Part shown: piece by piece, positions 3,613-62,801 of the stretch | How positions within the stretch are numbered: the stretch's first letter is position 1 | How the letters are laid out: each line of letters starts with the position of its first letter | Assembly: GCA_030697795.1 (NCBI GenBank) | Contig: JAUYOV010000004.1 | Location: 211,334 to 275,333 of the forward strand | DNA: 64,000 nt | DNA from: a bacterium | GTDB taxonomy: Bacteria > Patescibacteriota > Minisyncoccia > JACQLN01 | Direction: 5' to 3' | Position numbers and translations under genes: made by a program | Notes under the pieces: generated by a model | Seen by the model: only the letters and a program-made list of their open reading frames with translations | Databases searched by the model: none | Told to the model about the DNA's origin: nothing

Positions 3613-3699
3613 GCCCAGGTGGCGGAATTGGCAGACGCACAGGACTCAAAATCCTGCGATGGCAACATCATGAGGGTTCGACCCCCTTCCTGGGCACCA
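3613..3699 (+). tRNA. tRNA-Leu (anticodon CAA)
   Basis: Cloverleaf: 7-bp acceptor stem GCCCAGG/CCTGGGC; anticodon stem CAGGA/TCCTG with loop CTCAAAA, giving anticodon CAA; long variable arm typical of tRNA-Leu; T-loop TTCGACC; discriminator A; CCA is encoded. Confidence 0.85.
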
Positions 3700-3747
3700 C
3701 ATAAAAACAGGCGTCTAACTTGTCTGTTTTTAATTTTAATAAAATCT

Positions 3748-4137
3748 CTAATTAAACTTTATAGAAAAACCATACATCCCCATAGCGCAAGTTCCGTTTA
3801 TAACCGAACCGATCTTTTGGGGTGGCACTTCAATTTCGGTTGTACCCGATGGAGCTAAATTGGCTCTGTAGTTTAAACTTGGAATAACTAAAGCCGAAGT
3901 GCAATCAAAAGTGCCTTGTGTTTTTACTTTAATAACCGTGGGTATATCGGCTTTAGCTAAAATTTTTCGAGGCGTATAACCGCCCTTGGCTTTGATTGCT
4001 ATAATCTGTTTGCCGTCTATAATTTCTGAAACAGCTACGCTATCCACCGCACCGCTAGAATTTCTATTATTGGCAAAAAATATGGTGGCAAAAATAATAC
4101 CGGTCGAAACCACGATGGAAATAATTGTTAACTTCAT
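3748..4137 (-). CDS. Small secreted or membrane-anchored protein, putative metal-binding (CAMGM Cys/Met motif), co-operonic with cop genes
   Basis: N-terminal hydrophobic anchor and beta-rich sequence. Lies directly downstream of the HMA/CopA genes. Family is not recognised with confidence. Confidence 0.3.
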   Translation of the reverse strand: MKLTIISIVVSTGIIFATIFFANNRNSSGAVDSVAVSEIIDGKQIIAIKAKGGYTPRKILAKADIPTVIKVKTQGTFDCTSALVIPSLNYRANLAPSGTTEIEVPPQKIGSVINGTCAMGMYGFSIKFN

Positions 4138-4148
4138 AATCTTTGTTT

Positions 4149-5168
4149 CTAAAAATTAAATACTGGATTTAATAACCCTACTGCGACCAAACTATTAATT
4201 AAATTAAAAATTCCAAAAAATATTACCACCAAACCCGCCGCTTTAAAAAATATTCCTGATTGCGCTTTTTTGTGGATGCCGAGCGAACTAAAACTTAAAA
4301 GCAAAAGCACGGGCAATGTGCCAAGCGCAAACACACCCATAATTAGCGAACCTGCTAAAAAATTTCCGGTAGTTAGTGTATAAATCTGCATAGATTGAGT
4401 GAAACCGCACGGCAAGAAAAAGGTGGCAACGCCTACCAAAAGAGGCGTAAGCGTATGGTTTACACTTTTGAGGCCATGCACCCGCTTCCCAATAAAATTA
4501 GGTATAGTTGGTTGTAATTTTTTGGCCCAAGGGAACACATCCAGAAGATTAATGCCGAGCACAAGAAGCACTAAAGCCACTATAAAACTAAGAACGAATG
4601 TGACGGTTGATCCAAGCTGAAAAGCCGAGCCAAGCAGGCCGATAGCACCACCCAGAATAAAAAACGATACTAACCGTCCTATATGAAACAACACCTGCGG
4701 ACGAATCTTATCTCCTTCTTTGGCAAAGTTTGCGGACATAGAAAGAACTAGTCCACCGACAACTGCCATACACGTAGAAACAGAGGCTATCAGACCAATA
4801 ATAAAAGCCGTGCCCAAGCCAACTTCCGAACTGTTAACCAAATTTACTAAGCCAATCTTTTGTAAAAAAATAAAAAGCAAAATAAAACCTAAAGCTATTG
4901 GACCCGCCATTAAAAAATCTTTCCATTTAACTGAATGTTTTTGTTTTTCCAGAGAAAGTATATAACCGTGCGGTTTTAAGACTTCGTTTAAATCTCTCGC
5001 GATGTGTTCGGGTTCTTTATCACCAAAATCACCAGTCACTTCTATAGTATGATTTGTAAGCGATGACTTTGCTTTTGACACCTCGGTCATATTAGCAAGT
5101 TCGCTTTCTGTGAGCGCCACGCAGGCGTTGCAGTGCATACCGTTAACGTGAAATATGTATGTTTTCAT
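4149..5168 (-). CDS. HMA-domain (GMHCNAC) fused to a DsbD_2/CcdA-like polytopic membrane protein
   Basis: The N-terminal heavy-metal-associated motif GMHCNAC is followed by about 6 TM helices. These carry two membrane-embedded Cys residues (STCMA and FLPCGF), typical of the DsbD_2 family. Confidence 0.5.
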   Translation of the reverse strand: MKTYIFHVNGMHCNACVALTESELANMTEVSKAKSSLTNHTIEVTGDFGDKEPEHIARDLNEVLKPHGYILSLEKQKHSVKWKDFLMAGPIALGFILLFIFLQKIGLVNLVNSSEVGLGTAFIIGLIASVSTCMAVVGGLVLSMSANFAKEGDKIRPQVLFHIGRLVSFFILGGAIGLLGSAFQLGSTVTFVLSFIVALVLLVLGINLLDVFPWAKKLQPTIPNFIGKRVHGLKSVNHTLTPLLVGVATFFLPCGFTQSMQIYTLTTGNFLAGSLIMGVFALGTLPVLLLLSFSSLGIHKKAQSGIFFKAAGLVVIFFGIFNLINSLVAVGLLNPVFNF

Positions 5169-5215: not shown

Positions 5216-7513
5216 CTATAATTTCTTTGTTTTAATCCTCAAAGAATTTGCTACCACCGAAACACTAGAAGCCGCCATAGCAAAACCAGCAAACACTGGG
5301 CTTAAAAGCCAACCCAAAAATGGATAAAATGCGCCCGCCGCCAGAGGTATGCCAACAATGTTATAAATAAACGCCCAGAAAAGATTCTGCTTAATACCGC
5401 GCATTGTTGTTTTAGAGAGCGTTATCGCTTTAACCAGTTTTGAAATATCTCCGTGCAGTAAAGTTATACCAGCCGATTCTATAGCTACATCTGTACCCGT
5501 AGCCATAGCTATACCAATATCGGCTTGAGCCAAAGCTGGAGCATCATTTACACCATCGCCCGCCATAACAACAATCTTACCTTGCGATTGAAGTTCTTTA
5601 ATCTTTTTAAGTTTATCTTCGGGCATAACTTCGGCCACAACTTCATCTATACCAACTTCTTTAGCAATATACAAAGCAGTCTGTTTATTATCGCCTGTTA
5701 GCATAACCACTTTAATACCTAATTTATGCAAACGTTTAACGGCTTCGGCTGATTCTGGTTTTACCGCATCGGCTATCATAACCACACCTAAAACTTTTTC
5801 TTTGGCTGCAATTATTACAGGAGTTTTGCCGTTAGCCGTATCTTTTTCCATCAAGCTAGAATCAAATTGAATATTTAGATCGCGCATAAGTTTAATGTTG
5901 CCAGCATAATATTCTGTATTATTTATTAAACCTTTAACACCTTTACCTTTTATAGCTTCGAAATTATTTATTTGAGCAAAAGAAATATTTTTTTCTTTAG
6001 CATAATTAATAACTGCGTAAGCTATGGGATGCTCGGAATTTTTTTCTAGCGAGGCCAAAATAGAAATTAATTCTTCGTCTTTTTTTTCTGAAAAATTTTT
6101 AACAGAAACTAGCTCCGGCTTGCCTTTGGTTAGAGTTCCCGTTTTATCTACCACCACCACATTAGCTTTATGTAACTTTTCTAGCGTAGCCGCATCTTTT
6201 ACCAAAATACCTTCTTTGGCGCCCTTACCCACGCCGACTATAATCGCGGTGGGCGTAGCCAAACCAAGCGCGCAAGGGCAAGCAATAACCAAAATACCCA
6301 CAAAAGAAACCAGGCCAAATGAAAGCGCTTGCGAAAAATCCATATAACGAGCGCCGACTATAAGCCATAAACCTAAAACCACGAACGATAAAACTAAAAC
6401 CACCGGCACAAAAACAGCAGAAATTTTATCGGCTAAAGCCTGTATCGGCGCTTTACTGCCTTGAGCCTCCTCAACCATTTTAATTATATGCGCCAACATA
6501 GTCTCGGAACCTACTTTAGTGGCCTTAAAAGTAAAAGCACCGCTAGTGTTTATAGTTCCGGCCACAACATTTTCTCCAACGTCTTTTTTAACCGGAATAG
6601 GTTCGCCCGTAATCATAGATTCATCCACGTAAGAAGCTCCTTCGGTTATTACCCCATCAACTGGAATTTTGCCGGCGGGTTTAATCAAAATTAAATCGCC
6701 GTGAATAACTTCGCTTATTGGAATTTCTTGTTCGTGGCCATTTCGAACAACTAAGGCGGTTTTCGCCTGCATATTAATAAGTTTTTCTATGGCATCACCT
6801 GTTTTTATTTTAGAACGCGCTTCTAAATATTTTCCCAGAGTGATAAAAGTGATAACGACTATTGTAACATCATAATATGTATCTTCTGTGTTTATGAAAG
6901 TAGCCAAAACATCTTTAAAAATAGTAATGATTAAGCTATAGGCAAAGGCCACAAAAGTACCGATACCAATAAGCGTATCCATATTAGCTTTGCCATAGCG
7001 CAGAAAACGATAAAAACCCATTAAATAGGGTTGGCCGATATAAAACAAAGTATAGGCCGCTATTAAAGGCAGTAAATTTTGAAAAACATTTTCTACTGCA
7101 TTAGGAATTTCGGAAGCTACACCTAACTTAGAAAAAATTCCCCAAACCATAAAAATAGCGCTAACAATAGCCAAAGGAACTGCTGTTATTAACTTTTTTT
7201 TCATATTAGACAGTTCAGCTAGTTTTTCTTTTTTGCTTTGGTTCAAACCTAGATGTTCAGCGTGTTCGCTTTCCGACATATTCATTTCTTTAGCTGTTGG
7301 CTGAGGTAATGCCAAAGAATAACCTAATGGTTCTATTTTTTTAGAAATGGTTTCTAGGTTTGTTTTAGATTCATCAAAAGAAACTTTGGCCGTTTCTGTT
7401 CCATAGTTAACCTCTACCGATTCCACGCCCTCAACTTTTTTAAATATTTTTTCTATAATGGCCGCGCAGGAAGCACAATGCATCCCCTTGATTCTAGATG
7501 TTTTGGTTATCAT
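5216..7513 (-). CDS. copA: Cu(I)-translocating P1B-type ATPase
   Basis: N-terminal HMA GMHCASC; TM CPC motif CPCALGLATP; phosphorylation site DKTGTLT; hinge GDGVNDAPAL. Confidence 0.9.
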   Translation of the reverse strand: MITKTSRIKGMHCASCAAIIEKIFKKVEGVESVEVNYGTETAKVSFDESKTNLETISKKIEPLGYSLALPQPTAKEMNMSESEHAEHLGLNQSKKEKLAELSNMKKKLITAVPLAIVSAIFMVWGIFSKLGVASEIPNAVENVFQNLLPLIAAYTLFYIGQPYLMGFYRFLRYGKANMDTLIGIGTFVAFAYSLIITIFKDVLATFINTEDTYYDVTIVVITFITLGKYLEARSKIKTGDAIEKLINMQAKTALVVRNGHEQEIPISEVIHGDLILIKPAGKIPVDGVITEGASYVDESMITGEPIPVKKDVGENVVAGTINTSGAFTFKATKVGSETMLAHIIKMVEEAQGSKAPIQALADKISAVFVPVVLVLSFVVLGLWLIVGARYMDFSQALSFGLVSFVGILVIACPCALGLATPTAIIVGVGKGAKEGILVKDAATLEKLHKANVVVVDKTGTLTKGKPELVSVKNFSEKKDEELISILASLEKNSEHPIAYAVINYAKEKNISFAQINNFEAIKGKGVKGLINNTEYYAGNIKLMRDLNIQFDSSLMEKDTANGKTPVIIAAKEKVLGVVMIADAVKPESAEAVKRLHKLGIKVVMLTGDNKQTALYIAKEVGIDEVVAEVMPEDKLKKIKELQSQGKIVVMAGDGVNDAPALAQADIGIAMATGTDVAIESAGITLLHGDISKLVKAITLSKTTMRGIKQNLFWAFIYNIVGIPLAAGAFYPFLGWLLSPVFAGFAMAASSVSVVANSLRIKTKKL

Positions 7514-7900: not shown

Positions 7901-8500
7901 TTATTTTTGCGAGGGGAAAAATCTTTCTACATAACCCCATAAACTCAAGAAAGCAAGAACAGCGGAGCTAAACAGAAAAAAGAGAAACATATAATCAAAA
8001 AATGTTTTGCCTAAAACTGGCACAAAGTAACTATCGACAAAAAATAAACCGGCTACAAAAAAATACAAACACATTTTTCTCTTGCCCCAAACGTGAGCGC
8101 TTACATCCAAGTTTCTGCTTACACCAAAAATCCAAGTGCTTATTAAACCCGCTTCAAATACAAGTATGGCTATCAAAAAAGCCGAAGCCCAAACCGAAAC
8201 CGTACCTGACTCATTTATAAGTTGATTTAATTTAAACCCAAAAAGCGTGCAGGCAAAAAGTTTATCCCTAGCCCTATCTAGAGATTTTCCTAGTGTAGAA
8301 ACAATTTTAAAGCTCCGGGCTATTTTACCATCTAGCAAATCCGAAATGCCTATAAACACAACCATAAAAATCATGATCCCGCCTGAATAACCCTTAAACA
8401 AGAGCGTGATAAAAAGTATTACAGCAATTACGCCGATCCCTGTTACCATGTTGGCCAAATTATTCTTCATTTCTCTCCCCCTTTGTGATGAGTTAATCAC
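7901..8500 (-). CDS. CDP-alcohol phosphatidyltransferase family membrane protein
   Basis: Signature DLLDGKIARSFKIVSTLGKSLDRARD (D-G-x2-A-R...G-x3-D-x3-D) in a polytopic membrane protein. Confidence 0.65.
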   Translation of the reverse strand: MINSSQRGREMKNNLANMVTGIGVIAVILFITLLFKGYSGGIMIFMVVFIGISDLLDGKIARSFKIVSTLGKSLDRARDKLFACTLFGFKLNQLINESGTVSVWASAFLIAILVFEAGLISTWIFGVSRNLDVSAHVWGKRKMCLYFFVAGLFFVDSYFVPVLGKTFFDYMFLFFLFSSAVLAFLSLWGYVERFFPSQK

Positions 8501-8623
8501 ACCATCTTTTTAAAGAACGGAAAAGCCAACATATAGTAATACATTGGCTTAAAATAGGCAAAGGCAAGCGCAAGCTAATGGTCACAAATTTATGCTATAG
8601 CATTTTTTAGTGACTATAAAATA

Positions 8624-10406: not shown

Positions 10407-10429
10407 GGAGGTTCAACTTCTTAAAATAG

Positions 10430-10470
10430 GGAGGATGAAGGTGCTCCTCCTTGCCAGGAGCGAAGAAGTA
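10430..10470. repeat. Small palindromic repeat family, intergenic copy (glyA/tsaC intergenic) with hairpin GGAGGATGAAGGTGCTCCTCC
   Basis: Contains ...CCAGGAGCGAAGAAG. Confidence 0.5.
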
Positions 10471-10483
10471 TTAAATTTTGGAG

Positions 10484-11134
10484 TTATTTAATTTGTATTG
10501 TTTTTAAAATATTTAAAAAATTTTCCTTGTTGGTTGGGTTAATTCGAACGATTCTGGCATTATCCGTGGTTAAATCAATTATGGTGGAAGGATCGGATTC
10601 TGGCAAAACCCCGCCATCAATCACTAAATCCGGTTGCGAATTTTCTCGGCTAAAACGCTCTATAATCTCTTGCGGATCTTGAGACGGCTCTTCGCCCGAA
10701 ATATTGGCGGAAGTTGCAGTAATTGGTCCTTCAAAATCTGTTATAACGCTTTGGCAAAAATAATTATCGGGCATTCTCAAGGCTATAGAACTTCTGCCGG
10801 CGGTAAGCAAAAAAGAAATACTAGGTTTTTTCTTTAATATAAAAGTAAACGGGCCTGGCCAAAAGTTTTTTAATATTTTTTCTCTGGGCTTATCTATAAC
10901 CGCCAGGGCTTTAGCCATACTGATGGAATTTACCATAACCGGCAATGGTTTTTTATCGGAACGTTTTTTAATGGCAAAAATTTTTCTAATGGCATCGTTA
11001 TCAAAAGCATTAACTCCCATACCATAAAGTGTATCCGTGGGATAAACTACTACCCGCCCTTTTAACAACGCTAGCGCAGCTTCTTTAGAGGCCAGTTCCG
11101 GAGAAAAATTGTTTCGAATATCTAAAATTTTCAC
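10484..11134 (-). CDS. tsaC: L-threonylcarbamoyladenylate synthase (YrdC/Sua5 family)
   Basis: YrdC-domain motifs VVVYPTDTLYGMGVNAFD. 216 aa. Confidence 0.8.
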   Translation of the reverse strand: MKILDIRNNFSPELASKEAALALLKGRVVVYPTDTLYGMGVNAFDNDAIRKIFAIKKRSDKKPLPVMVNSISMAKALAVIDKPREKILKNFWPGPFTFILKKKPSISFLLTAGRSSIALRMPDNYFCQSVITDFEGPITATSANISGEEPSQDPQEIIERFSRENSQPDLVIDGGVLPESDPSTIIDLTTDNARIVRINPTNKENFLNILKTIQIK

Positions 11135-11145
11135 GTAATACTAAT

Positions 11146-11243
11146 TTACGAATTTATGCGAATGATACGAATACTATATGCGAATATTTTTATTCGTGCA
11201 TCTATTTGTATAATTCGTATGCATTCGTATATTGGCATTGCAC
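11146..11243 (+). repeat. About 95-bp repeat Y, copy 1 (TACGAAT heptamer array; between the leuS stop and the tsaC start)
   Basis: Homologous to 16283-16367. Four ACGAAT/GCGAAT direct repeats at about 10-bp spacing, then inverted ATTCGTAT copies. Confidence 0.8.
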
Positions 11244-13729
11244 TATACCACGAAGTTAATAAACCTGTCTTTAATAAAAATAACTTTTTTTACGGGGGAG
11301 ACAAGATACTTAGAAATATTTTTGTTGTTTTTAGCCGCCGTTTCAACCTCTTTTTGAGAAGAATCTGCTGGCATTTTAATAACCGCGCGCATTCTGGCAT
11401 TAACCTGCACTACTATGTCTACCTCCTTGTCTTTGACCAGTTTAACGTCAAACTTTGGCCAAGGCGCTATATGAATAGATTTTTTATTCTTTAAAATTTC
11501 TCTAAATATTTCCTCGCTCATATGTGGTGCAAAAGGCGCTAAAATCTTAGCAAAAATTTCTAGTTCGCTTTTGCCAACAGATTCTATATTGGCTTCAAAT
11601 TCATTTAACAAAACCATTAAAGCCGAGACCGAAGTATTGTAATTTAAATTTTCTAAATCTTCTGTAACTTTTTTGATTGTCTTGTGTATCTTTGTTTGTA
11701 TATTGGAATTTGCTTGCCCTTCCGAAGCTCTGAAAGAGCGAAGGAGGGTGATTTGTTTAGAAATTAGAAATTGGGAATTAGAAATTTTCCAGATTCTTTC
11801 CAAGAATCTGATTATCCCTTTTATACCACCATCTCTAAAATCACCACCTTGATCGAACGGACCCAAAAACATTAAGTACATTCTTAAAACATCGGCGCCG
11901 TAATTTTTAATATATTCGTCGGGATTAACCACATTCCCCTTGGATTTTGACATTTTAGCGCCATCTTTTATTAACAAACCGTGGGCACGGAATTTTTTAA
12001 ATGGTTCGTCAAAATTAGTTAAACGCAGGTCCTTGAATACCATTGCTAAAAAACGCACATACAATAAATGCAAAACAGAATGCTCCGCGCCACCAATATA
12101 CATATCTACCGGGCACCATTTTTTAGTTACAGATTGATCCCAAGCGTATTTCTTTTCTTTAACAGAAGCATAACGCAAATAATACCAAGCCGAATCTAAG
12201 AAAGTATCGGAAACATCGGTCTCGCGTCTCGCCATACCTTCGCATTTAGGGCATTTAACTTTATAAAATTTTTCATCGGCCGCTAAAGGCGACTGGCTCG
12301 TACCAGTTGGCCTAAAGTTTTTTATGTAAGGCAATCTAACCGGTAAATCTTTTTCGGGCACCACAACCCAACCTGGATTTTCCAACTCTCCCAAATTAAA
12401 TTCTCCCTTATTTTTGAGATTTGATTTTTGAGATTTGATTTTTTCTGCGCAGTTTTCACAGAAAACAAGCGGTATAGGCGCACCCCAATAACGCTGTCTG
12501 GAAATTAGCCAGTCACGAAGCCGGAATTGAATTGTTTTTTTACCTCCACTCTTTTTTATTCCTTCTTCAATAGAGACTAAAGGTGCGCTACTCACTGGTA
12601 ATTTGAATTTTTGGGCAAATTCTAAATCACGCTCATCGTGCGCTGGAACACCCATAACTGCGCCTGTGCCGTAACCTGCTAAAACATAATCCGAAATCCA
12701 AACCGGAACTTTTTCGTTGTTGGCTGGGTTAATGGCCGAGATACCAGAAAAAACTCCTGTTTTTTCTGGACCCCGACCCTCATGAGGCGTCGGGGTTATA
12801 TTATTTTTTATATACTCCCTGACCTCATTCGGCGCTTGCCAGCCGATATCTAACCAAGACTTTGCTTTCTCGGGCGAAATTGCAATAAACGTTACACCAA
12901 AAACTGTATCTGGGCGTGTAGTAAAAACTTCCAAATACGCCGATTCACGCTGATCTGACGCAGATTTACGCAGAAAAATTCCGCGTTGATCCGCGTTAAT
13001 TTCCGCGTTGATCCGCGTAAGGGGAAATTTTATAGAAGCACCTTCCGATTTACCTATCCAATTTTTTTGAGCTATTTTTACTTTTTCGCTCCAATCTATT
13101 TTATCTAAACCTTTTAAAAGTTTATCGGCGTATTTAGTTATTCTAAAAAACCATTGCTCTAATTCTTTTTTAATAACTTTAGTATTACATCTTTCACATT
13201 CACCACTTATTACTTGTTCATCGGCTAAAACTGTTAAACACGAAGGGCACCAATTAACCGCCGATTTTTTGCGGTAAGCCAAACCATTTTTATATAACTG
13301 AATAAAAATCCATTGAGTCCATTTATAATATTCAGGGTCGTAAGTTTCTAGTTTTTCGTGCCAAGCAAAACCATTGCCTATCATTTGCAGTTGGCGATAA
13401 AAATTTTTCTCGGAAACTCTGGCTTGATCCATCGGGTGTTCGCCAATTTTTAAAGCGTAGTTTTCGGAATGTATGCCAAAACCATCTAAACCAATCGGCT
13501 CAAAAACGTTATAGCCCTGCATTCTTTTAAATCGCCCGTAAATATCGCTCCCCACAAAAGCGTACACATTACCCACGTGTAAGCCTTCAGCTGAAGGATA
13601 TGGAAACATCATTAGGTTATAGAAAGGATTCTTAGCGTTTTTAAGATCCGGTTCGTAAACCTTCTCGGCCAGCCATTTTTTGCGCCATTTAGATTCTACT
13701 CTCTTGTGGTTGTATTTAGCCATTTGCAT
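11243..13729 (-). CDS. leuS: Leucyl-tRNA synthetase, carrying several low-complexity or repeat-derived in-frame insertions
   Basis: HIGH-type motif HVGNVYAF; KMSKS; editing-domain TTRPDT. Inserts at about 11717-11750, 12410-12450 and 12979-13023. Confidence 0.9.
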   Translation of the reverse strand: MQMAKYNHKRVESKWRKKWLAEKVYEPDLKNAKNPFYNLMMFPYPSAEGLHVGNVYAFVGSDIYGRFKRMQGYNVFEPIGLDGFGIHSENYALKIGEHPMDQARVSEKNFYRQLQMIGNGFAWHEKLETYDPEYYKWTQWIFIQLYKNGLAYRKKSAVNWCPSCLTVLADEQVISGECERCNTKVIKKELEQWFFRITKYADKLLKGLDKIDWSEKVKIAQKNWIGKSEGASIKFPLTRINAEINADQRGIFLRKSASDQRESAYLEVFTTRPDTVFGVTFIAISPEKAKSWLDIGWQAPNEVREYIKNNITPTPHEGRGPEKTGVFSGISAINPANNEKVPVWISDYVLAGYGTGAVMGVPAHDERDLEFAQKFKLPVSSAPLVSIEEGIKKSGGKKTIQFRLRDWLISRQRYWGAPIPLVFCENCAEKIKSQKSNLKNKGEFNLGELENPGWVVVPEKDLPVRLPYIKNFRPTGTSQSPLAADEKFYKVKCPKCEGMARRETDVSDTFLDSAWYYLRYASVKEKKYAWDQSVTKKWCPVDMYIGGAEHSVLHLLYVRFLAMVFKDLRLTNFDEPFKKFRAHGLLIKDGAKMSKSKGNVVNPDEYIKNYGADVLRMYLMFLGPFDQGGDFRDGGIKGIIRFLERIWKISNSQFLISKQITLLRSFRASEGQANSNIQTKIHKTIKKVTEDLENLNYNTSVSALMVLLNEFEANIESVGKSELEIFAKILAPFAPHMSEEIFREILKNKKSIHIAPWPKFDVKLVKDKEVDIVVQVNARMRAVIKMPADSSQKEVETAAKNNKNISKYLVSPVKKVIFIKDRFINFVV
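11717..11750. repeat. Small palindromic repeat family (core CGAAGCTYTRAGCGAAGGAGG), copy in frame inside leuS
   Basis: Shares the core with copies at 10430-10470, 14263-14293, 35714-35770, 41711-41776 and 53781-53812. Confidence 0.7.
12979..13023. repeat. ATCCGCG-unit GC-rich repeat (TTCCGCGTTGATCCGCGTTAATTTCCGCGTTGATCCGCG) in frame inside leuS
   Basis: Related copies lie in ileS (34941-35009) and polX (48637-48676). All three are in minus-strand genes. Confidence 0.7.
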
Positions 13730-14690: not shown

Positions 14691-14707
14691 GTTTTTGAGA
14701 AAAAAAT

Positions 14708-14785
14708 ATCATTCCGAACAGCATTATGGAGAAGACTAATTTATAAATAAAGAGGCTCCATATCGTCTGTGAGGAATGATATTTT
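14708..14785 (+). repeat. About 78-bp structured repeat X, copy 1 (upstream of tatD)
   Basis: About 90% identical to 29077-29157. Nested inverted repeats (TCATTCC/GGAATGA; ATGGAG/CTCCAT). Confidence 0.8.
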
Positions 14786-14787
14786 TA

Positions 14788-16269
14788 CTAGTTTAATCTA
14801 GGAAACAAATTCTCGCCTTTCTTAAAGTTTATTGCGGATTCTGTAAACCAGATTTGTTTTCTAATTTTTTCGCCTGTTTCTGGTAAAAATGGTTCAACCA
14901 AATTTAGTATAACACCTAGCAAGTAGCCAGAATTAGCCATAACTTTCCTAAGATTTTCAGTTGAAACCACGTTTGACGTGGCGTCTTTAATTTCCCAAGG
15001 TTTTTTATCGTTAATATATTTATCGGCAAAAGAAACCAAACCCCAAACATTTATTAAAGCTTCGTGTAATTTAATTTCGTCTAAAGAAGATTCATATGCT
15101 TTATAAAAATCGTTGCAAGCTTTTTTAACTTCTGGTTCTATATCCGTAGCAAAATCAAACTTTACCGGGTTTATTTTTTCGCCCAAAGTAACTGTGCGCG
15201 CTACCAAATTTCCTAAACCATTAGCTAAGTCTGCGGAATATCTATCTTCAAACTTTCTTAAACTAAAATCTCCGTCATCGTAAGAAGGAATTTCTCGTAA
15301 AAGATAGTAACGTAACGCATCTGTGCCATATTTTTGAACCAGTGGCACAGGATCCACAATATTACCCAAACTTTTAGACATCTTTTGCCCTTCCACCGAA
15401 ATAAAACCATGAACAAAAATAGCTTGGGGTAATGGCAAACTAGCCGATAAAAGTATACCCGGCCAAATAGCCGCATGAAAACGTAAAATATCTTTGCCTA
15501 CAACTTGAAGATCGGCTGGCCAAAGTTTTTTAAATTGCTCGGTTTCATCGCCATAGCCAATAGCTGTAATGTAATTAGCTAAAGCATCACACCAGACGTA
15601 TATAACTTGGTCGGGATCGCCAGGCACCGGTACGCCCCACGGCAAATCTTTTTTAGGCCTAGAAAAGCTAACATCCTCTAAACCAGATTCTATAAAAGAT
15701 AAAATTTCATTTTTACGAGATTCGGGAATTATTTTTAATTCGTCATTTTTAATTTTAGAAGCAATCTGGCTTTGATATTTTGAAAGCCTAAAAAACCAGT
15801 TTTCTTGTTCTACTGTTTCTGGTGCTTTTTGGTGATCGGGGCATTTACCATCCACCAAATCTTTTTCTGTTTTAAAAGATTCGCAACCCACGCAATAAAG
15901 CCCGTTGTATTTTTTCTTATAGATATCACCGGCTTCCGAAAGTTCCTGCCATAATTTTTGAACACCTGGCCAATGAACTTCTTGATCGGTTGTTCTAATA
16001 AACCCATCCCAAGAAAGATTTAAAACATTTTTTAACTGTTTAAAATATTCTGCGTTTTCGTTTACAAATTCCTGTGCATTTTTATTCTCTCTTTCGGCTG
16101 CGCGAAAAATCTTAACACCGTGTTCGTCGGTACCCGTTAAAAAGAAAACTTCATCACCTTTTATTCTGTGATAACGCGCCAAAACATCCGCTTGAATCTT
16201 TTCTAAAGCGTGTCCAATGTGCGGTTTCGCATTAACATAATCAATGGCGGTTGTAATATAAAACTTCAT
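14788..16269 (-). CDS. metG: Methionyl-tRNA synthetase (short form, no C-terminal tRNA-binding domain)
   Basis: HIGH motif PHIGHALE and KMSKS; Met-RS catalytic core. 493 aa. Confidence 0.9.
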   Translation of the reverse strand: MKFYITTAIDYVNAKPHIGHALEKIQADVLARYHRIKGDEVFFLTGTDEHGVKIFRAAERENKNAQEFVNENAEYFKQLKNVLNLSWDGFIRTTDQEVHWPGVQKLWQELSEAGDIYKKKYNGLYCVGCESFKTEKDLVDGKCPDHQKAPETVEQENWFFRLSKYQSQIASKIKNDELKIIPESRKNEILSFIESGLEDVSFSRPKKDLPWGVPVPGDPDQVIYVWCDALANYITAIGYGDETEQFKKLWPADLQVVGKDILRFHAAIWPGILLSASLPLPQAIFVHGFISVEGQKMSKSLGNIVDPVPLVQKYGTDALRYYLLREIPSYDDGDFSLRKFEDRYSADLANGLGNLVARTVTLGEKINPVKFDFATDIEPEVKKACNDFYKAYESSLDEIKLHEALINVWGLVSFADKYINDKKPWEIKDATSNVVSTENLRKVMANSGYLLGVILNLVEPFLPETGEKIRKQIWFTESAINFKKGENLFPRLN

Positions 16270-16282
16270 AAGTATACTAATC

Positions 16283-16367
16283 TACGAATCTATGCGAATT
16301 ATACGAATGGATTTAACGAATATTTGTAACTTATTTGTATCATTCGTATCCATTTGTATATTGGCAT
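16283..16367 (+). repeat. About 85-bp repeat Y, copy 2 (immediately upstream of the metG start)
   Basis: See copy 1. Confidence 0.8.
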
Positions 16368-16369
16368 AT

Positions 16370-17410
16370 TTAATTTTCTTCGTGATGATGTCCAAAATCT
16401 TTTATAATTTCCACTAAAACTACAGCTACCGGCACCGCAAGAATTATGCCCGGTATGCCAAAAAGTTCACCACCCACCAGCAAAGAAATTATAACGATAA
16501 CCGGGTTAAGACCGATAACTCGGTTCATTATATTAGGCACAAAAACATGATTTTCTAACTGGTGCACAATAGTGTAAACAAGAAGCACCCAAAGGGCTAC
16601 TATGGGCGATTTTAATAAACCCAAAATTACAGCAGGCACCGCGGCCAGTACCGGCCCAAATATTGGAATAATTTCCATAATACCTGCCACCAAAGCCAAG
16701 AGAACTCTGTGATTAATTCCAAAAATCAAAAGCCCAATATAAATTAAAACGCCAACTATTAAACTAAGCACCAACTGCGCTTGCAACCAACGGCCCAGTT
16801 TGTATTGAGCGCGAGACCATAAACCCAAAACATAGGGCTGTTTTTCTTTGGGTGTAACCGCACGCAAAAACATACTAATACCGTGTTCTTGGGCCGCTAA
16901 ATAAAAAGAAATAACAATAACAAAACCTGCAGAAATAAATCCGCCAAAAATTCCGCTGGTAGCTCCAAAAATATTTCCAGAAACATGCGCCAGATCGTTA
17001 CTGATAGCCACCAGATTATCTTGGACCTTGTTTAACAATTGTTCATACTGTGGCGCAGAATCTCTTATGACCTTAAAAAAACCATTCACCTTATCAAAGT
17101 AAACCGGCACAGTTAAAGAAAGATTGCCTAATTCGTCCGACAAAGGAGAAATTATAAAATAAAGTATTGTGCCCAGTACCAAGAATGCTAAAAGGTAAAT
17201 AACAAAAACACCCAAGGTTCTGGGAATGCCTTTGCCCTGAAAATAATTAGCCAGAGGTGTCACCGCCGCCGCAATTATTATAGAAAACAAAAGCACCGCT
17301 ATGACGTCGCGGATTAAATAAACTAAGGCTAAACCCAGCACAATAGCAAAACCACGGAGTAGGGTTTCCGTGTTTATGCTGATATCGGTATGAGCTAACG
17401 GAGATTTCAA
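16370..17410 (-). CDS. AI-2E family (UPF0118/PerM-like) transporter
   Basis: 346 aa, about 8 TM helices. Topology and length fit the AI-2E family. Confidence 0.6.
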   Translation of the reverse strand: MKSPLAHTDISINTETLLRGFAIVLGLALVYLIRDVIAVLLFSIIIAAAVTPLANYFQGKGIPRTLGVFVIYLLAFLVLGTILYFIISPLSDELGNLSLTVPVYFDKVNGFFKVIRDSAPQYEQLLNKVQDNLVAISNDLAHVSGNIFGATSGIFGGFISAGFVIVISFYLAAQEHGISMFLRAVTPKEKQPYVLGLWSRAQYKLGRWLQAQLVLSLIVGVLIYIGLLIFGINHRVLLALVAGIMEIIPIFGPVLAAVPAVILGLLKSPIVALWVLLVYTIVHQLENHVFVPNIMNRVIGLNPVIVIISLLVGGELFGIPGIILAVPVAVVLVEIIKDFGHHHEEN

Positions 17411-27427: not shown

Positions 27428-27463
27428 TTGGTTGGTTGGTTGGTTGGTTGGTTGGTTGGTTGG
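27428..27463. repeat. Microsatellite (TTGG)9
   Basis: Perfect tetranucleotide tandem repeat between the RT2 stop and the target 2 stop. Confidence 0.9.
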
Positions 27464-27567
27464 AATTGGAACTCTCTTTCATTATAAATTTAGTATAACA
27501 TAATTGGTTATAAAAAATTGAACCCTCGGATTTTCCGAAGGTTCAAGAAACAAAATTCAAAAGCCTG

Positions 27568-29038: not shown

Positions 29039-29076
29039 AAACGGTAAAAGTATAACATGTATCCTAAATTAAAATT

Positions 29077-29157
29077 ATCATCCCGAACAGCATTATGGAG
29101 AAGACTATCTTATATAAATAAAGAGGCTCCATATCGTCTGTGAGGGGTGATAATTTT
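29077..29157 (+). repeat. About 80-bp structured repeat X, copy 2 (upstream of recO-like, divergent from the GT39 gene)
   Basis: See copy 1. The outer stem shows a compensatory change (TT/AA to CC/GG). Confidence 0.8.
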
Positions 29158-29211
29158 TCTTAAAAACTTGCTGGCGAGCGAAAGAGCAATTTTTAAGCTA
29201 AACTATTAAAC

Positions 29212-34370: not shown

Positions 34371-37300
34371 TTAAATATTTTTAATCCCCACCCCGATTTC
34401 AAATCCTTCATAATTCCAAACTTTGTGGACCAAGAAATTTTCGTGTTCGGTTATGCCAAAGTTAATTTGTGTAGAACGAGTTTCGGCTTTTATAACTTGT
34501 TCCCAACGAGTTAATAATTCTTTAAAGTTGGCGTTTTGGTTAAGTTCGTAATGTAAAATTATTTTATCTTCTGGTGTTAATTTGGCTTCTTTTCGCATTT
34601 CGTTTATATTGCGAATCATTTCACGAACCATTCCTTCTTCCTTAAGCTCCGCCGTAAGTTCGGTATCCAAATTAACGTTGTTCTTTTCTATTTTTCTATC
34701 ACTTAAAACTTTTTTAACATTGAGTTCTTCGGCAACTATATATAGAACATCGCCAATTAAATTGTAATCAGCCGGTGAAACATATAAAGCATTTAAGGGC
34801 TGGCGTACGCGCAAACCCGCTTGAGCGCGCTCGGCAAGCCCCAGCGCCACAATTTCGCGGGCTCTATCCATGACTTTCGTAATATCGGAAGCCTTAACAG
34901 TTTTGGTATTTGGCCATTTTTCCAAATGAACCGACTCCCCAAACGCCGATAAACGCCGATTTTTATCCGCGCTGATCCGCGCTGATCCTTGCGTTAATCC
35001 GCGTAATTCTTGATAGAGCCATTCCGATATAAACGGCGCAAATGGCCCCATAACAACAGATACGCGTTTTAAAACTTCGGTTAAAGTATTTTGAGCCGAT
35101 AGTTTTTCGGCATCTATATTTTGCTTTTGGAACTTACGGCGGCTACGGCGTATATACCAATTAGAAAGTTCGTCTATAAAAGCTTCTATAGCACGCGAAG
35201 CGGAAGTAATGTCGTAGCTTTCTAAAAATTTATTTACTTCGAACTCCAACATTTCTGTTTTAATCAAAACCCATTTATCTAAAATATCTGTTTTGGCTAG
35301 TAAAGATTTCGGAGCTTCGGTGTAATAAGTTTCTAAAAACAAAAACGAATTAATTAAAGTATCGGCGAATCTACGTTTTTTAGATTCTATATCGCGCAAA
35401 CTAAAAAGTTTATTATCGCCCGGCGCGTTTACAGTGTAAAAATACCAACGCATCATATCGAACCCAACTTTCTCACCCACCAGCCAAGGGTCTACAATGT
35501 TCCCTTTAGACTTCGACATCTTCTCGCCCTTTTCATCTAGAACATGGTTTAAACTAATTACATTCTTATACGGATTACCTTCGCCTAAAGCGGTAGATAC
35601 CGCCATTAAAGTATAAAACCAGCCCCGGGTTTGATCGATCGCTTCGCAAATATAATCTGCTGGAAAATGGTCTTTCGGTAAATTTTTATTTTTTATATTT
35701 AAATTTTTCTTGTCCTTCGAAGCCTTGCTGTGCCACTCCGTAGCTTTGAGCGAAGGGTGGGCGTAGGAGGAAACTTGAGACGCCCACGGCATTGCACCCG
35801 AATCAAACCAAACATCGGCCAAGTCTTTTATACGTTCCATCTTCGAGGAACACATAGAACACTTAAGGAACACGCTATCGGCATAGGGGCGATGCAGGTT
35901 TAAATTGCCTTCTTCATCGTGGGGCCAGTTATTTGTTTCTACAAAAGTAAATTCGGCAGGGGACAAAGCTAGTTTAGAATCTTTAACTGCGTTTTGATAC
36001 AAAAGTTTTGTTTCGTCTTCGCCATAAATTCCATTAGATAATTGCATTAAAAATAAGGGGTCCATATGGCTTACCACAACCACCTTCTTGCCAGCGTGTT
36101 CTCTAGAAACATCCATCATAAATTCGCGCACCCGTTTGGCCACATCCAACCACGATTCGCCTGCCGGCGCGGGGCGAATAAATTTATCTTTAAAAGAATT
36201 AAAATATTTTTCATATTCCAAAAATGGCCCGCCATTAAACTCGCCAGTGTTTATTTCGCGTAAGCGTTCATCAAAAATTACTTCTTTTATTTTAAGTTCG
36301 TCCGCCAATATTTGAGCCGTCTCTCTGGCTCTTAATAGATCCGATGAATATATGGCCGATACCTTATTAGCCGCCAAAAGTTTTTTTATATTTTGGGCGG
36401 ATGCCTCTGCTTGTTTTCTACCCTTTTCGGTTAGGGGGTTTAAAATCTTTTCAGGGTAAGCACTGCAAATACCTTTAGCGTTAGATTCTGCTTCGCCATG
36501 GCGCATTAAAATTAAAGTGGTTGGAGAATCTAGGCGGTGTTCGTTAAGCTCGGCTAAAGAACCAATAACAGTTTTGTGTTCGCATTTGGTGCATGCCCAA
36601 ATTGGCAAGGGTGTTCCCCAATAGCGTTCGCGGCTTATAGCCCAGTCTTTAACCTCGCGTAACCATTCGCCAAACCGGCCATCTTTAATGTGTTCGGGCA
36701 CCCAATTAACTTTTTCGTTATTTTTAATTAGATCGTTTCTTAACGCCGACATTTTTATAAACCAACTTTCTTGGGCGTAATATAGTAAGGGCGATTTACA
36801 CCTCCAGCAAAAAGGATATTCGTGCTTATAGCTTGACTCATTAAACAGCAAATTTTGTTTTTTTAAGTAAAACAAAATCGTTTTTTCGGTTATGGGGTCT
36901 TTTTTGTTTTCACTAACAACAGCAAGCCCGCCTACTATAGGAACAGATTTTACAAAAACTCCTTCACGATTAACCGTGTGGAATTTAGGCAAATTTAATT
37001 TGGAACCGAGTTCAAAATCGTCGACGCCATACATTACGGCTGTATGCACAATGCCCGTACCATCTGCGGTAGTTACAAAATCGGCTTCGTAAACTCTGTA
37101 CGAATTTTCGGATTCCAACTCTTTAACAGCAAAAAGTGGTTCGTAAGAAAGTCTAGTAAGCTCGCTAGAAGTTAGTTCTTTATTTATTTTGTATTCTACT
37201 TTAGCCTCGCCAAAAACTTTAGGCGCTAAATCGCGAGCCAAAATATATTTTTCACCATTAGCTTCGACTTCTACATAGGTAACTTTCGGGCCAACAGCTA

Positions 37301-39035: not shown

Positions 39036-39046
39036 CCCCCCCCCCC
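39036..39046. repeat. Homopolymer C11 in the 53-bp divergent RT3/avd3 intergenic region
   Basis: 11 consecutive C. A similar C10 tract at 19677-19686 sits between RT1 and avd1. Confidence 0.9.
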
Positions 39047-39071
39047 GAGACTTCCACCGCTGATTGATAAA

Positions 39072-41260: not shown

Positions 41261-41620
41261 CGGGGATGACATGAATCGACAAGGAACGTATCGATAAGAA
41301 TTCGAAGCTGAGGTAGACCACAAACTCATAAAACTGGTTACAAATAGTAAGTGCAAACTTATTTAGCGCTAATAAACCAGCGTTTGCTGTAGCTTAAAAT
41401 CTATCAGCCATCGCCCTGTTTTCGCCCGAGTAAACAGTGTGCGGTGCCAACCTTTCGGGCCGCTCTTTCAGGCCAGGCGAACTTGAAAGCTAAGACAACG
41501 CCAAAAGTTTAATTTTTTTCACCATTCTTTAAGGGTTAAACTTAAATTAAGAATGGTTAGGCTTCGTACTAGTTCAATCGAGAAATTTTTTGTACGCGGG
41601 TTCAATTCCCGCCATCTCCA
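41261..41620 (+). ncRNA. ssrA: tmRNA (ssrA)
   Basis: 5-prime end GGGGATGACATGAATCGACAAGG matches the canonical GGGGnTGAnnnnGAnTCGACnGG. 3-prime tRNA-like end GTACGCGGGTTCAATTCCCGCCATCTCCA has a T-arm and a 7-bp acceptor stem pairing with the 5-prime end. Immediately downstream of smpB. Tag ORF ends ...PAFAVA-stop. Confidence 0.8.
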
Positions 41621-41710
41621 CTGCTACGCCAAGGCTACGCAGTGCACGCACCAATCTAAACAAGACATGCTATATTAATTGAACGATCTTGTTAGATTAG
41701 AATAGTAGCA

Positions 41711-47773: not shown

Positions 47774-49536
47774 TTTTTTAAAAATCCCAACATCTTCTCT
47801 AATGGCCAAGCATTCACGATGTCCGACTTCGTGGTCCAAGCACGCCTGGCTTGCGCAATGCCAAGTTCTAAATATTTAAAGTGATCCGTATGATGCGCAT
47901 CAGAATCTATAGACAATTTTACCCCTTCTGCTAAAGCCATTCTTATATGCTCATCTTTTAAATCCAGCCTATCGGCAAAAGCGTCTATTTCTAAAACTGT
48001 GCCCGTTCTTTTAGCGGCCTTGACGATCTCCACCATATCAACTTCGTAAGCTGGGCGTTTATTAATAATTCGGCCTGTTGGATGAAAAAGAATATCTACA
48101 TTTGGGTTTTCCATCGCCTTAATTATTCTTTTGGTTTGCTCGGCTTTTGGTAGGTTAAATAACGAATGCACCGCCACACCAACAATATCTAACTTGGCTA
48201 AAGTTTTGTCGTCTATATCCAGCGAACCGTCTTTTAATATATTAACCTCTGCTCCCTTTAGAACTCGTAGCTTACGACTTTTAGCTTTTAGCTTATAGTT
48301 AATTTCGTCAATCGCAGACATTTGCTTTTCTAATTTTTTCTCGTCTGATCCGCCTGTCATAGCAAGGGATTTTGTATGATCGGTTATTAAAATATATTCT
48401 AAACCCATCTTCATAGCCGCTTCTGCCATTTCTTCTATTGTGTTTTCGCCATCGGTCCAAGTAGTTTGAATCTGCAAGTCTCCCTTCAAGTCATTGTACC
48501 CAATGAGTTTTGGTAATATATGATTTTGAGCGGCTTCAATCTCGCCTGATAATGTTCGGAGTTCAGGTTCAATATAATCCAAGCCAAGTTTATTATATAT
48601 TTCCTCCTCGGTTTTACCAGCAATCATAACCTCTTTCCGCGTAAATCCGCGTTTTGATCCGCGCCTTTCCGCGACCTTAAAGAGGCCGTATTCGTTTAAT
48701 TTATATCCTTTATCTATAGCAATCTTTCGCAATTCAACATTATGGTTTTTGTCTCCGGTAAAATACTGGGCGGCCGCCCCAAAACTTTCGGGGACCACCA
48801 CGCGTAAATCCATTTCTAAACCATTTCTTAATTTAACCACACTTTTAGTTTCGCCTTTCGCCACCACTCGCCCAACTTCGGGCATTTTAATAAAAAGATC
48901 CATAACTTCTTTTGGTTTTTTAGAAGTTATTAAAATATCTATATCGCCCACAGTTTCCTGCATTCGGCGGGCCGAACCGCATAATAAAACTTTTTCTGTA
49001 TATTGGCTTTTTTCTAAGCGTGAAATTATTTCCCTAATTTCCGGCAAAACAAAACCCAAAACATAGCGGTAGATATGTTTTTTAACAAATTCTAAACCTT
49101 TTAAAATTTTCTCTTCGGACTTTTCGCCAAACCCCTCTAGACTTTTTATTAAACCCGCCTTCGCCGCCTTCTCTAAATCGCCTAATGTCCTAATTCCTAG
49201 CTTCTTATATAGCTTATAAACTCCTTTCGGCCCAACACCCTCCACACTGGTTAAACCTTCTATATCTACCGGAATTTTCTTTTTTAAAGCTAAGTGTTCC
49301 TTTATTTTTTTTGTTTTTATATATTCCTCTATCATTTCCGACATGCTTTTGCCTACACCCTGAATTTCTTCTAAAGCTTTGGTTCCGCCTCTTTTGTATA
49401 TATCTTTTAAGTCTTCGCCTAGGTTTTCTATATTCGTGGCCGCGCGTTCAAAAGCCTGTGGCTTAAAAGCCACCTCTTGCATAGCAAACAATATAGAGAT
49501 TTCTTTAAATATCTTGGCGATTTCTTGGTTTATCAT
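47770..49536 (-). CDS. polX: DNA polymerase X family protein with C-terminal PHP phosphoesterase domain
   Basis: HhH N-terminus; Pol-beta nucleotidyltransferase motif LCGSARR...GDIDILI; PHP His/Asp motifs (HTDHT, HH). Confidence 0.85.
   Translation of the reverse strand: MINQEIAKIFKEISILFAMQEVAFKPQAFERAATNIENLGEDLKDIYKRGGTKALEEIQGVGKSMSEMIEEYIKTKKIKEHLALKKKIPVDIEGLTSVEGVGPKGVYKLYKKLGIRTLGDLEKAAKAGLIKSLEGFGEKSEEKILKGLEFVKKHIYRYVLGFVLPEIREIISRLEKSQYTEKVLLCGSARRMQETVGDIDILITSKKPKEVMDLFIKMPEVGRVVAKGETKSVVKLRNGLEMDLRVVVPESFGAAAQYFTGDKNHNVELRKIAIDKGYKLNEYGLFKVAERRGSKRGFTRKEVMIAGKTEEEIYNKLGLDYIEPELRTLSGEIEAAQNHILPKLIGYNDLKGDLQIQTTWTDGENTIEEMAEAAMKMGLEYILITDHTKSLAMTGGSDEKKLEKQMSAIDEINYKLKAKSRKLRVLKGAEVNILKDGSLDIDDKTLAKLDIVGVAVHSLFNLPKAEQTKRIIKAMENPNVDILFHPTGRIINKRPAYEVDMVEIVKAAKRTGTVLEIDAFADRLDLKDEHIRMALAEGVKLSIDSDAHHTDHFKYLELGIAQARRAWTTKSDIVNAWPLEKMLGFLKK
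48637..48676. repeat. ATCCGCG-unit repeat in frame inside polX
   Basis: CCGCGTAAATCCGCGTTTTGATCCGCGCCTTTCCGCG. Confidence 0.7.
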
Positions 49537-53698: not shown

Positions 53699-53780
53699 GG
53701 TTTTAATGACTAATGACTAAACTTTTTTATCATTTTGATTTAGACATTAGGTTTTGATTAGAAATTAGGCATTAGATATT

Positions 53781-53812
53781 GCTCGCCCTGCGAAGCTTTA
53801 GCGAAGTAGGGG
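53781..53812. repeat. Small palindromic repeat family, intergenic copy (between the UDG and permease genes)
   Basis: GCTCGCCCTGCGAAGCTTTAGCGAAGTAGGGG. Confidence 0.7.
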
Positions 53813-53817
53813 AAATT

Positions 53818-62692: not shown

Positions 62693-62801
62693 GAAATTTC
62701 TAATTACTAATACCTAATTTCTAATCAAATCCTAATAACCAATGACAAAATTATTTAGACATTCAGACATTAGAAATTAATTAGATATTAGTAATTGGAT
62801 A

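Follow-up and report, generated by a model that had tools for sequence, protein, structure and literature searches.

Two intergenic spacers in a 64-kb stretch of a Minisyncoccia genome (contig JAUYOV010000004.1; the whole stretch is called the window below) are filled by homologous elements of 100 to 108 bp, which lack an open reading frame (ORF) and carry inverted arms, made of short repeated words, at both ends. In other genomes, arms of the same kind were found to enclose the gene of a small nuclease of the PD-(D/E)XK fold (Pfam PDDEXK_3, PF13366; NCBIfam TIGR04256, “GxxExxY protein”). We consider it likely that the window elements, which carry no ORF, are non-autonomous relatives of an inverted-arm GxxExxY nuclease cassette. 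A first-pass annotation of the window had suggested that they are a promoter or protein-binding module shared by translation-related genes. Because the same arms flank the PDDEXK_3/GxxExxY gene as inverted repeats, a selfish cassette is indicated rather than a host regulon.

Anatomy of the two window elements

The window has a G+C content of 38%, and its genes lie mostly on the minus strand. Element 1 is located between leuS and tsaC, and element 2 between the gene of an AI-2E family transporter and metG. The matches listed for the arms are those of a hidden Markov model (HMM) built from 32 arms of other genomes.

10484-11134, minus strand: TsaC (Sua5/YrdC; Pfam), GTG start codon at 11134
11135-11242: element 1, ORF-less inverted-arm element occupying the entire spacer between the leuS stop and the tsaC start
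11135-11185, plus strand: arm A of element 1, abutting the tsaC GTG start (11134); HMM match 11134-11173, plus strand, E 3.9e-11
Words of this arm: ACTAAT (outer) at 11140-11145, ACGAAT at 11148, GCGAAT at 11158, ACGAAT at 11167, GCGAAT at 11180
11186-11191: apical loop ATTTTT of element 1, at the position of the ~400-nt nuclease ORF in the full cassettes of other genomes
11192-11242, minus strand: arm B of element 1, inverted, stopping 1 nt short of the leuS stop codon; HMM match 11247-11204, minus strand, E 5.3e-08
Words of this arm: ATTCGT at 11192, ATTTGT at 11204, ATTCGT at 11213, ATTCGT at 11223, ATTGGC at 11231
11243-13729, minus strand: LeuS (Pfam), stop codon 11243-11245
14788-16269, minus strand: MetG (Pfam), ATG start codon at 16269
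16270-16369: element 2, ORF-less inverted-arm element occupying the entire spacer between the AI-2E transporter stop and the metG start
16270-16321, plus strand: arm A of element 2, abutting the metG ATG start (16269); HMM match 16274-16310, plus strand, E 1.6e-09
Words of this arm: ACTAAT (outer) at 16276-16281, ACGAAT at 16284, GCGAAT at 16294, ACGAAT at 16303, ACGAAT at 16316
16322-16369, minus strand: arm B of element 2, inverted and more decayed, stopping 1 nt short of the transporter stop codon; HMM match 16367-16335, minus strand, E 5.7e-05
Words of this arm: ATTTGT at 16322, ATTTGT at 16333, ATTCGT at 16342, ATTTGT at 16352, ATTGGC at 16360
16370-17410, minus strand: AI-2E family transporter (Pfam), stop codon 16370-16372

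The two elements are 80% identical when aligned. Each arm is ~45 to 50 bp long and holds four or five AC(G/A)AAT words 8 to 13 bp apart, while the outer words ACTAAT and ATTGGC close each near-palindromic element. Relative to element 1, element 2 has a 7-nt deletion at the apex, the apical junction being otherwise common to both, and the two elements share the end TT(C/T)GTATATTGGCAT. The pattern ACGAAT-N(2-8)-RCGAAT-N(2-8)-ACGAAT was found at only two places in the 64 kb, one in each element, and never in 100 shuffles. The arm HMM likewise matched four arms in the window and no others, one pair in each element (E values of 4e-11 to 6e-5).

These results agree with the first-pass annotation in much of its description: the homologous word arrays upstream of tsaC and metG, the four forward ACGAAT/GCGAAT words followed by inverted copies and a shared terminus in both elements, and the identities of leuS, tsaC, and metG, which Pfam confirms and which all lie on the minus strand. 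It had located the elements correctly, although the limits that it gave (11146-11243 and 16283-16367) are slightly too narrow, as the true elements comprise the whole spacers. The period of about one helical turn that it had noted is only a rough one; the forward words are spaced by 10, 9, and 13 bp in both elements, without a strict helical repeat.

The consensus of Patescibacteria arms reads cGA(T/C)(A/G)C(C/T)AAT-(A/C)(T/C)ACGAAT-nn(A/G)(T/C)GCGAAT-(G/A)A(T/C)ACGAAT, so that the arms end in CGA(T/C)(A/G)C. The words of a given arm vary in concert: 9 arms are all-CAC, 17 are all-TAC, and a single arm mixes C and T, while 5 further arms combine a T outer word with AACGAAT. Degeneracy of the type ACGAAT to ACAAAT is tolerated. 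Both the co-variation and this degeneracy are compatible with a single protein that recognizes the word, but common descent is another possible source of them. It is quite possible that the words are binding sites of a protein.

The same arms enclose a GxxExxY nuclease gene

In four loci of other genomes (L015, L084, L046, and L116), inverted arms enclose a PDDEXK_3 ORF. The matches to Pfam PDDEXK_3 had E values of 1.6e-18 and 8e-18 (67.6 and 65.3 bits, with a cut-off of 22), and those to TIGR04256 reached 69.1 and 61.4 bits (cut-off of 35). In L015 the arms are ~415 bp apart with a 135-aa ORF between them, and the cassette lies in the nusG/rplK junction, a site found to be occupied repeatedly (L015, L124, L146, and L168). 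A full Patescibacteria cassette measures ~0.5 kb, carries a nuclease gene of ~125 codons, and occupies the gap from a host stop codon to the start codon of the following gene.

The association was also approached from the protein side. Eighty metagenome loci were chosen solely by their similarity to three aligned nuclease proteins, which removes the bias of selecting loci by a DNA pattern, and 71 of them had full flanks. Two or more forward CGAAT words lay within the 90 nt upstream of the ORF in 53 of the 71 loci, and two or more inverted words lay within the 110 nt downstream in 50; both sides carried them in 41. Words in the wrong orientation were found in only 2 (upstream) and 7 (downstream) loci. 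Most of the remaining loci bear arrays of variant words, namely CCGAAT/ATTCGG, CTAAT/ATTAG, GCGAAA/TTCGC, and CACGAAC/GTTCGT. The arm HMM, which is narrow, gave 62 matches in the 273 kb of protein-chosen loci, 43 of them at the predicted place and in the predicted orientation, and inverted-repeat arms were detected in 55 of 69 such loci. The ORF is co-oriented with both neighboring genes in ~85% of loci, and the gaps of ~58 nt are just the arms.

Three GxxExxY genes of other subfamilies (two in L007 and one in L102) lie between inverted repeats whose sequences are unrelated to the arms, those of L007 being TGTCTGAAC.../...GTTCAGACA in both instances. In view of these unrelated repeats and of the arm counts at protein-chosen loci, embedding between inverted repeats looks like a general trait of the GxxExxY gene family. 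Many GxxExxY-domain proteins in databases (e.g., P0246, P0254, P0270, and P0288) are 250 to 900 aa long, with the domain placed either terminally or centrally; these may be gene-call fusions of a cassette ORF with its neighbors, or true fusions.

Among 48 homologues of the nuclease, D and K are invariant and E is nearly invariant in the D...E-x-K arrangement (D64, E74, and K76). The AlphaFold model (predicted local distance difference test score, 92.6) has a PD-(D/E)XK fold. Fold search returned only generic PD-(D/E)XK relatives, i.e., Cas4, lambda exonuclease, tRNA-splicing endonuclease, Hjc, and the catalytic domain of I-Bth0305I, all with E > 1e-3, and no solved structure was retrieved by sequence search. 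The family is large, with 3,889 clusters at 50% identity (E <= 1e-3). Libraries of defense systems and phage proteins gave one weak PADLOC match to a “homing endonuclease” and PHROGs without an assigned function.

In a superfamily survey of 2012, the function of the family is given as “Unknown,” with “multiple transfers” (PMC3424549). GxxExxY, PDDEXK_3, and PF13366 are rarely mentioned in the searchable literature, where a description of the cassette was not found and where the words CACGAAT/ATTCGTG occur only in primers and CRISPR papers. Among the matches listed for literature on miniature inverted-repeat transposable elements (MITEs) or Patescibacteria-related terms, the MITE term was absent. 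The cassette is apparently undescribed.

Distribution of the arm family

A scan of one genome per GTDB species with the pattern ACGAAT-N4-GCGAAT-N3-ACGAAT gave at least 120 loci, compared with ~17 expected for a uniform base composition (2 x 5.96e11 / 4^18). The matches listed span many lineages of Patescibacteria as well as Bacteroidota (Chitinophagaceae and Mucilaginibacter), Planctomycetota, Verrucomicrobiota, Elusimicrobiota, Thermodesulfobacteriota, and a few others. Among these listed matches, ~102 of 123 are intergenic by a crude ORF call; they typically lie 0 to 30 nt from the neighboring genes, often filling the spacer, and adjoin many unrelated genes in either orientation. An inverted partner arm is located nearby in roughly half of them, ~67 of the 123 being single arms, and several genomes hold multiple copies. 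ORF-less hairpins of the same general layout recur in different Patescibacteria, and some copies stand before rplV, rpsQ, ssb, thrS, or rplK. No convincing case of an ORF enclosed by arms was found at non-Patescibacteria loci.

In six loci from Bacteroidota and other groups (L097, L017, L076, L094, L107, and L034), the CGAAT arms adjoin arrays of other words (five copies of CCCTAAA, TTAGTTTT, TGCGT, and TTGGAC), which indicates that word-array spacers of several kinds co-occur in these genomes.

Turnover at orthologous spacers

Relatives identified by their MetG, annotated as Minisyncoccia or Parcubacteria, allowed the same spacers to be compared; the window itself comes from a member of Patescibacteria of the Parcubacteria type. 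In the syntenic loci L121 to L123, whose MetG proteins are 87 to 90% identical to that of the window, the AI-2E/metG spacer is only 25 nt long and has no CGAAT element; in L121 and L122 (positions 7976-8000), it is a short array of CTAAA words. The leuS/tsaC spacer of L121 to L123 holds a different element together with degenerate remnants of arms. Among more distant relatives (MetG 76% identical), L204 has the metG-proximal arm alone at the AI-2E/metG spacer, and L205 lacks any arm at that place, its CGAAT hairpin being in the neighboring metG/tatD spacer. Since the element content of the same spacers differs among these relatives, the spacers of this clade are turnover hot spots for several small palindromic element families. 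As for the two properties by which the first-pass annotation had proposed to judge its module, further copies are abundant elsewhere, whereas the orthologous sites are not conserved.

Origin of the window elements

The window copies consist of arms only, with no nuclease ORF between them, and so fall short of a full-form GxxExxY (TIGR04256) cassette. They may represent MITE-like or decayed forms. The shared apical junction makes it probable that both go back to a progenitor in which the ORF was no longer present.

Three analogies suggest how the elements may work: MITEs, free-standing homing endonuclease genes, and transposons whose ends carry arrays of subterminal repeats. On this model, the words would bind the nuclease of the cassette itself, which would gather on the two arms much as transposases gather on such repeats. 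The cassette would then spread by nuclease-initiated transposition or homing, and ORF-less derivatives would be mobilized in trans, the arm hairpin in the operon mRNA being a by-product. Because the arms and their hairpin reach the start codons, they may nevertheless influence the expression of tsaC and metG as a side effect.

It is tempting to go further, although we do so only tentatively and without regarding the wider proposal as the probable one. GxxExxY/PDDEXK_3 proteins, which form thousands of clusters without an assigned function, might be the enzymes of a class of undescribed compact mobile cassettes of ~0.5 kb. Such a cassette would be composed of the gene and of two arrays, inverted to each other, of words of the AC(G/A)AAT type; its insertion sites would be the stop-to-start intervals of essential operons in Patescibacteria, and arms alike in words and spacing occur in Bacteroidota, Planctomycetota, and other groups. 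The nuclease would recognize the words, words and protein would co-evolve, and ORF-less hairpins such as the two of the window would be mobilized in trans.

Several observations weigh against a derivation of the window elements from the nuclease cassette. Searches with jackhmmer and tblastn detected no PDDEXK_3 gene in the 64-kb window, nor in those loci of syntenic relatives that were available, so that an autonomous partner in this genome is unproven. The gene was also looked for, and not found, beside the matching arms of Bacteroidota and Planctomycetota. No target-site duplication was noticed in an informal reading of the junctions of the window, L015, L168, L104, L109, and L111, and the spacers are too diverged for a precise empty/filled junction to be aligned. 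The window copies score 55 against each other and 53 to 54 against the copies of other Patescibacteria in L098 and L104; as the latter are about as similar as the window copies are mutually, recent spread within this genome is not demonstrated. To our knowledge, a 125-aa PD-(D/E)XK core is not a known transposase. Finally, the nuclease gene could instead have invaded hairpins that existed before it.

This last alternative, in which the hairpin is primary, as a mobile or host-maintained palindrome, and the nuclease gene is a later invader of its loop, appears unlikely to us, although it is the best of those considered. Homing endonuclease genes are known to colonize introns, and ORFs occupy the loops of 23S rRNA intervening sequences. 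It would also suit the numbers, as ORF-less arms and hairpins, including those of the same layout in different Patescibacteria, far outnumber ORF-bearing ones (an ORF is present in ~4 of 120 of the loci listed). A precedent is the intervening sequence of the Coxiella 23S rRNA gene, which is described as a selfish hairpin element with an internal ORF (PMC4990558). An invasion of preexisting hairpins is difficult to reconcile, however, with the GxxExxY genes of other subfamilies (L007 twice and L102), which bring inverted repeats of their own, or with the word variants CCGAAT, CTAAT, and GCGAAA, which go with particular cassettes as expected of a single unit of arms and gene. Moreover, no other candidate mobilizer is linked to the arms.

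Arms as DNA repeats rather than RNA structure

As a single strand, each element forms one long imperfect hairpin, whose stem approaches the tsaC and metG start codons to within 0 to 4 nt. The plus strand folds with -40.7 (element 1) and -28.5 (element 2) kcal/mol, with z scores of -7.5 and -5.9 relative to shuffles, and the mRNA-sense minus strand with -24.9 and -20.0 kcal/mol (z scores of -3.3 and -3.4). Repetitive extragenic palindromic (REP)-type elements act as mRNA stabilizers, and the present hairpins, both strands of which fold better than shuffles and which closely approach two start codons, might similarly act at the RNA level, as an intercistronic processing site (e.g., for RNase III), as a stabilizer of the mRNA, or by occluding the tsaC and metG start codons. 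We regard such a role as improbable for the following reasons.

The strand that folds much better in the window is the plus strand, which is antisense to the genes, and it does so because of G.U pairs. An antisense RNA, which this difference suggested, is not borne out by the family-wide balance of G.U and A.C mismatches and by the lack of a strand rule. In a neutral alignment of the arms, the ratio of G.U to A.C is 6:2 in element 1 and 5:1 in element 2, counts that are partly shared by descent; the excess is explained by the stronger decay of one arm (ACGAAT to ACAAAT). Across 55 ORF-bearing cassettes, the arm mismatches on the ORF strand comprised 104 G.U, 111 A.C, and 303 transversions, and hence no G.U excess. 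A G.U bias in copies selected by pattern is a matter of ascertainment, as the pattern demands a G in the second word. Among 41 hairpins, no rule was found that links the more stable strand to gene orientation, i.e., there is no preference for sense or antisense.

RNAalifold gave a covariation term of +0.14 for 15 ORF-less hairpins, and thus no covariation; since the words are conserved, hardly any of the pairs vary. Compensatory evolution of the arms specific to each copy is weak (mean score of 21.1 within a copy versus 15.3 between copies), and in most Patescibacteria copies the arm's own partner matches it no better than the arms of other copies do. The palindrome arises because both arms approximate one consensus, as in terminal inverted repeats. 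A role in RNA is also at odds with the many partnerless single arms among the matches listed and with the absence of the element from the orthologous spacers of relatives. Judged by these comparisons, the arms behave as DNA-level terminal repeats and not as RNA structure.

Scanning the window with Rfam at gathering thresholds gave only a transfer-messenger RNA (tmRNA) and one tRNA, with no T-box and no match to either element, which upholds the earlier statement that the arrays are not a T-box. A permissive scan of 11050-11330 gave only sub-threshold matches to generic hairpin models of miRNA precursors.

The view of the first-pass annotation, in which a host regulator would bind an iteron-like array serving as a promoter or operator of translation-related genes, could appeal to words about one helical turn apart, direct and inverted, beside the tsaC and metG start codons and to the copies preceding rplV, rpsQ, ssb, thrS, and rplK, but it is largely refuted by the absence of the element from the orthologous sites of relatives (L121 to L123 and L205, with one arm only in L204) and is very improbable also in view of the unrelated neighbor genes in both orientations, of sigma-70 promoter-like matches at background (22 versus 21 +/- 4.8 expected from shuffles), of intrinsic terminator-like matches at shuffle background, and of arms that are the terminal repeats of a nuclease gene. 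An apparent tie to translation genes is to be expected anyway in tiny genomes dominated by translation operons.

If the derivation from a nuclease cassette is correct, it provides a biological context for GxxExxY/PDDEXK_3, a large orphan protein family, and explains a recurrent type of intergenic sequence in the ultra-small genomes of Patescibacteria that could be mistaken for promoters, operators, or structured RNAs. The known small selfish elements would gain a PD-(D/E)XK-based cassette with word-array arms. Arms set against the start codons of essential genes may modulate operon expression where regulatory DNA is very scarce. For annotation, the arms should be masked ahead of motif or regulon discovery.

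Other repeats and features of the window

A second dispersed spacer element of ~90 nt occurs at 10407-10483 of the window, at 12925-13020 of L122, at 6850-6945, 8475-8570, and 13560-13660 of L204, and at 6905-6985 of L205, in different spacers of the clade. Its core reads TTCGCTCCTGCAAGGAGG(G/A)GC ... CCTCCCT ... GAACCTCC(TT/CC)GAAGTCGCT, and the window copy has no Rfam match. In L122 and L204 it is closed by a stem, ATTCGCAT...ATGCGAAT, which is built from the same word as the arms studied here.

A third repeat family consists of hairpins of ~90 nt, both strands of which fold at about -32 kcal/mol, with copies 14 kb apart in the window, at 14691-14787 in the metG/tatD spacer and at 29071-29160, and a further copy in the orthologous metG/tatD spacer of L121 (9470-9560). 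The metG/tatD spacer holds a CGAAT-word hairpin in L205 and the GGAGG-type element in L204. Two intergenic gaps of the window, 53699-53817 and 62693-62801, are filled entirely by CTAAT/ATTAG words that repeat every ~7 bp, first in five or six direct copies and then in four inverted ones; the arm HMM finds no match there.

Within leuS, at 12958-13020, an in-frame palindrome of ACGCAG/CCGCGT words (fold, -33 kcal/mol) encodes the peptide INAEINADQRGIFLRK. This 16-aa insertion is not present in the syntenic LeuS of L122 and L205, and the window LeuS has further insertions of 25 and 13 aa. The palindrome recalls the in-frame insertions known as Rickettsia palindromic elements. Arrays of related CCGCG words lie inside two other long ORFs (34966-35006 and 48636-48676). 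The following features were also recorded:

3613-3696, plus strand: tRNA (Rfam)
27440-27480: (TTGG)n microsatellite
39040-39055: C11 homopolymer run in intergenic DNA
41262-41623, plus strand: tmRNA gene (Rfam, 105 bits)

Comparison with known systems

Iterons, to which Rep proteins bind at the origins of plasmids and phages, are direct repeats of 17 to 22 bp accompanied by a rep gene and an AT-rich unwinding region. The window elements have words of 6 to 7 nt in both orientations, no rep gene, and leuS, tsaC, metG, and an AI-2E transporter gene as neighbors, and do not belong to this class.

The intervening sequences of 23S rRNA (e.g., Coxiella IVS/S23p; PMC4990558) resemble our elements in the long stem formed by inverted flanks, in the optional small ORF of the loop, in the frequency of ORF-less forms, and in being regarded as selfish. 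The elements described here differ from them in residing in mRNA operon spacers, between protein-coding genes and outside the 23S rRNA helices, in the family of their ORF, and in showing no sign of pairing at the RNA level (no covariation and no G.U bias) or of excision by RNase III. They are not intervening sequences of the rRNA type.

Free-standing homing endonuclease genes (phage Seg and Mob; I-Ssp6803I and I-Bth0305I of the PD-(D/E)XK fold) share with the GxxExxY cassette the sporadic occurrence of a small nuclease gene between conserved essential genes. The recurrence at nusG/rplK, the weak PADLOC match, and the weak fold match to I-Bth0305I are further points of likeness. Homing endonuclease genes, however, are normally without long inverted arms of word arrays and without palindromic ORF-less relics.

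In the AAACGG hexamers of Ac/Ds and in the TnsB sites of Tn7, short words are direct at one end and inverted at the other and are bound cooperatively by the protein of the element itself; Tn7 also uses TnsA, a nuclease of the restriction enzyme (PD-(D/E)XK) fold. The likeness of these subterminal arrays to the arms is one of resemblance only, with no homology and no DDE partner protein.

REP elements, including hairpin-forming doublets (REPINs) and their associated tyrosine transposases (RAYTs), are likewise intergenic palindromes that form ~100-nt hairpins, and they too involve one small nuclease-type gene flanked by repeats. Unlike RAYTs, the partner protein here is of the PD-(D/E)XK (PDDEXK_3) and not of the HUH/Y1 fold. 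The arms end in CGA(T/C)(A/G)C and have no GTAG head, and copy density is low (2 per 64 kb). The relative L204 does contain an IS200-like Y1 transposase gene (3696-4373; PF01797), but it has hairpins of its own (tgtgcaatatcagatattgcaca), which are unrelated to the CGAAT arms. Thus, the elements are not members of the REP/REPIN-RAYT system.

MITEs such as the Correia/NEMIS elements of Neisseria are also similar in overall form. The present elements depart from them in that the partner is a 125-aa PD-(D/E)XK nuclease (GxxExxY) and not a recognized transposase, in that the arms are arrays of 6- to 7-nt words and not a single terminal inverted repeat, and in that the informal reading showed no target-site duplication. 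Like MITEs, they are non-coding sequences of ~100 bp with two inverted arms, are located between genes near gene starts and ends, share their arms with a larger gene-carrying element, and differ in presence and absence between relatives. The window elements thus display several features of MITEs, being small, non-coding, and bounded by inverted repeats, having arms in common with a gene-carrying element, and showing both multiple copies and insertion polymorphism.

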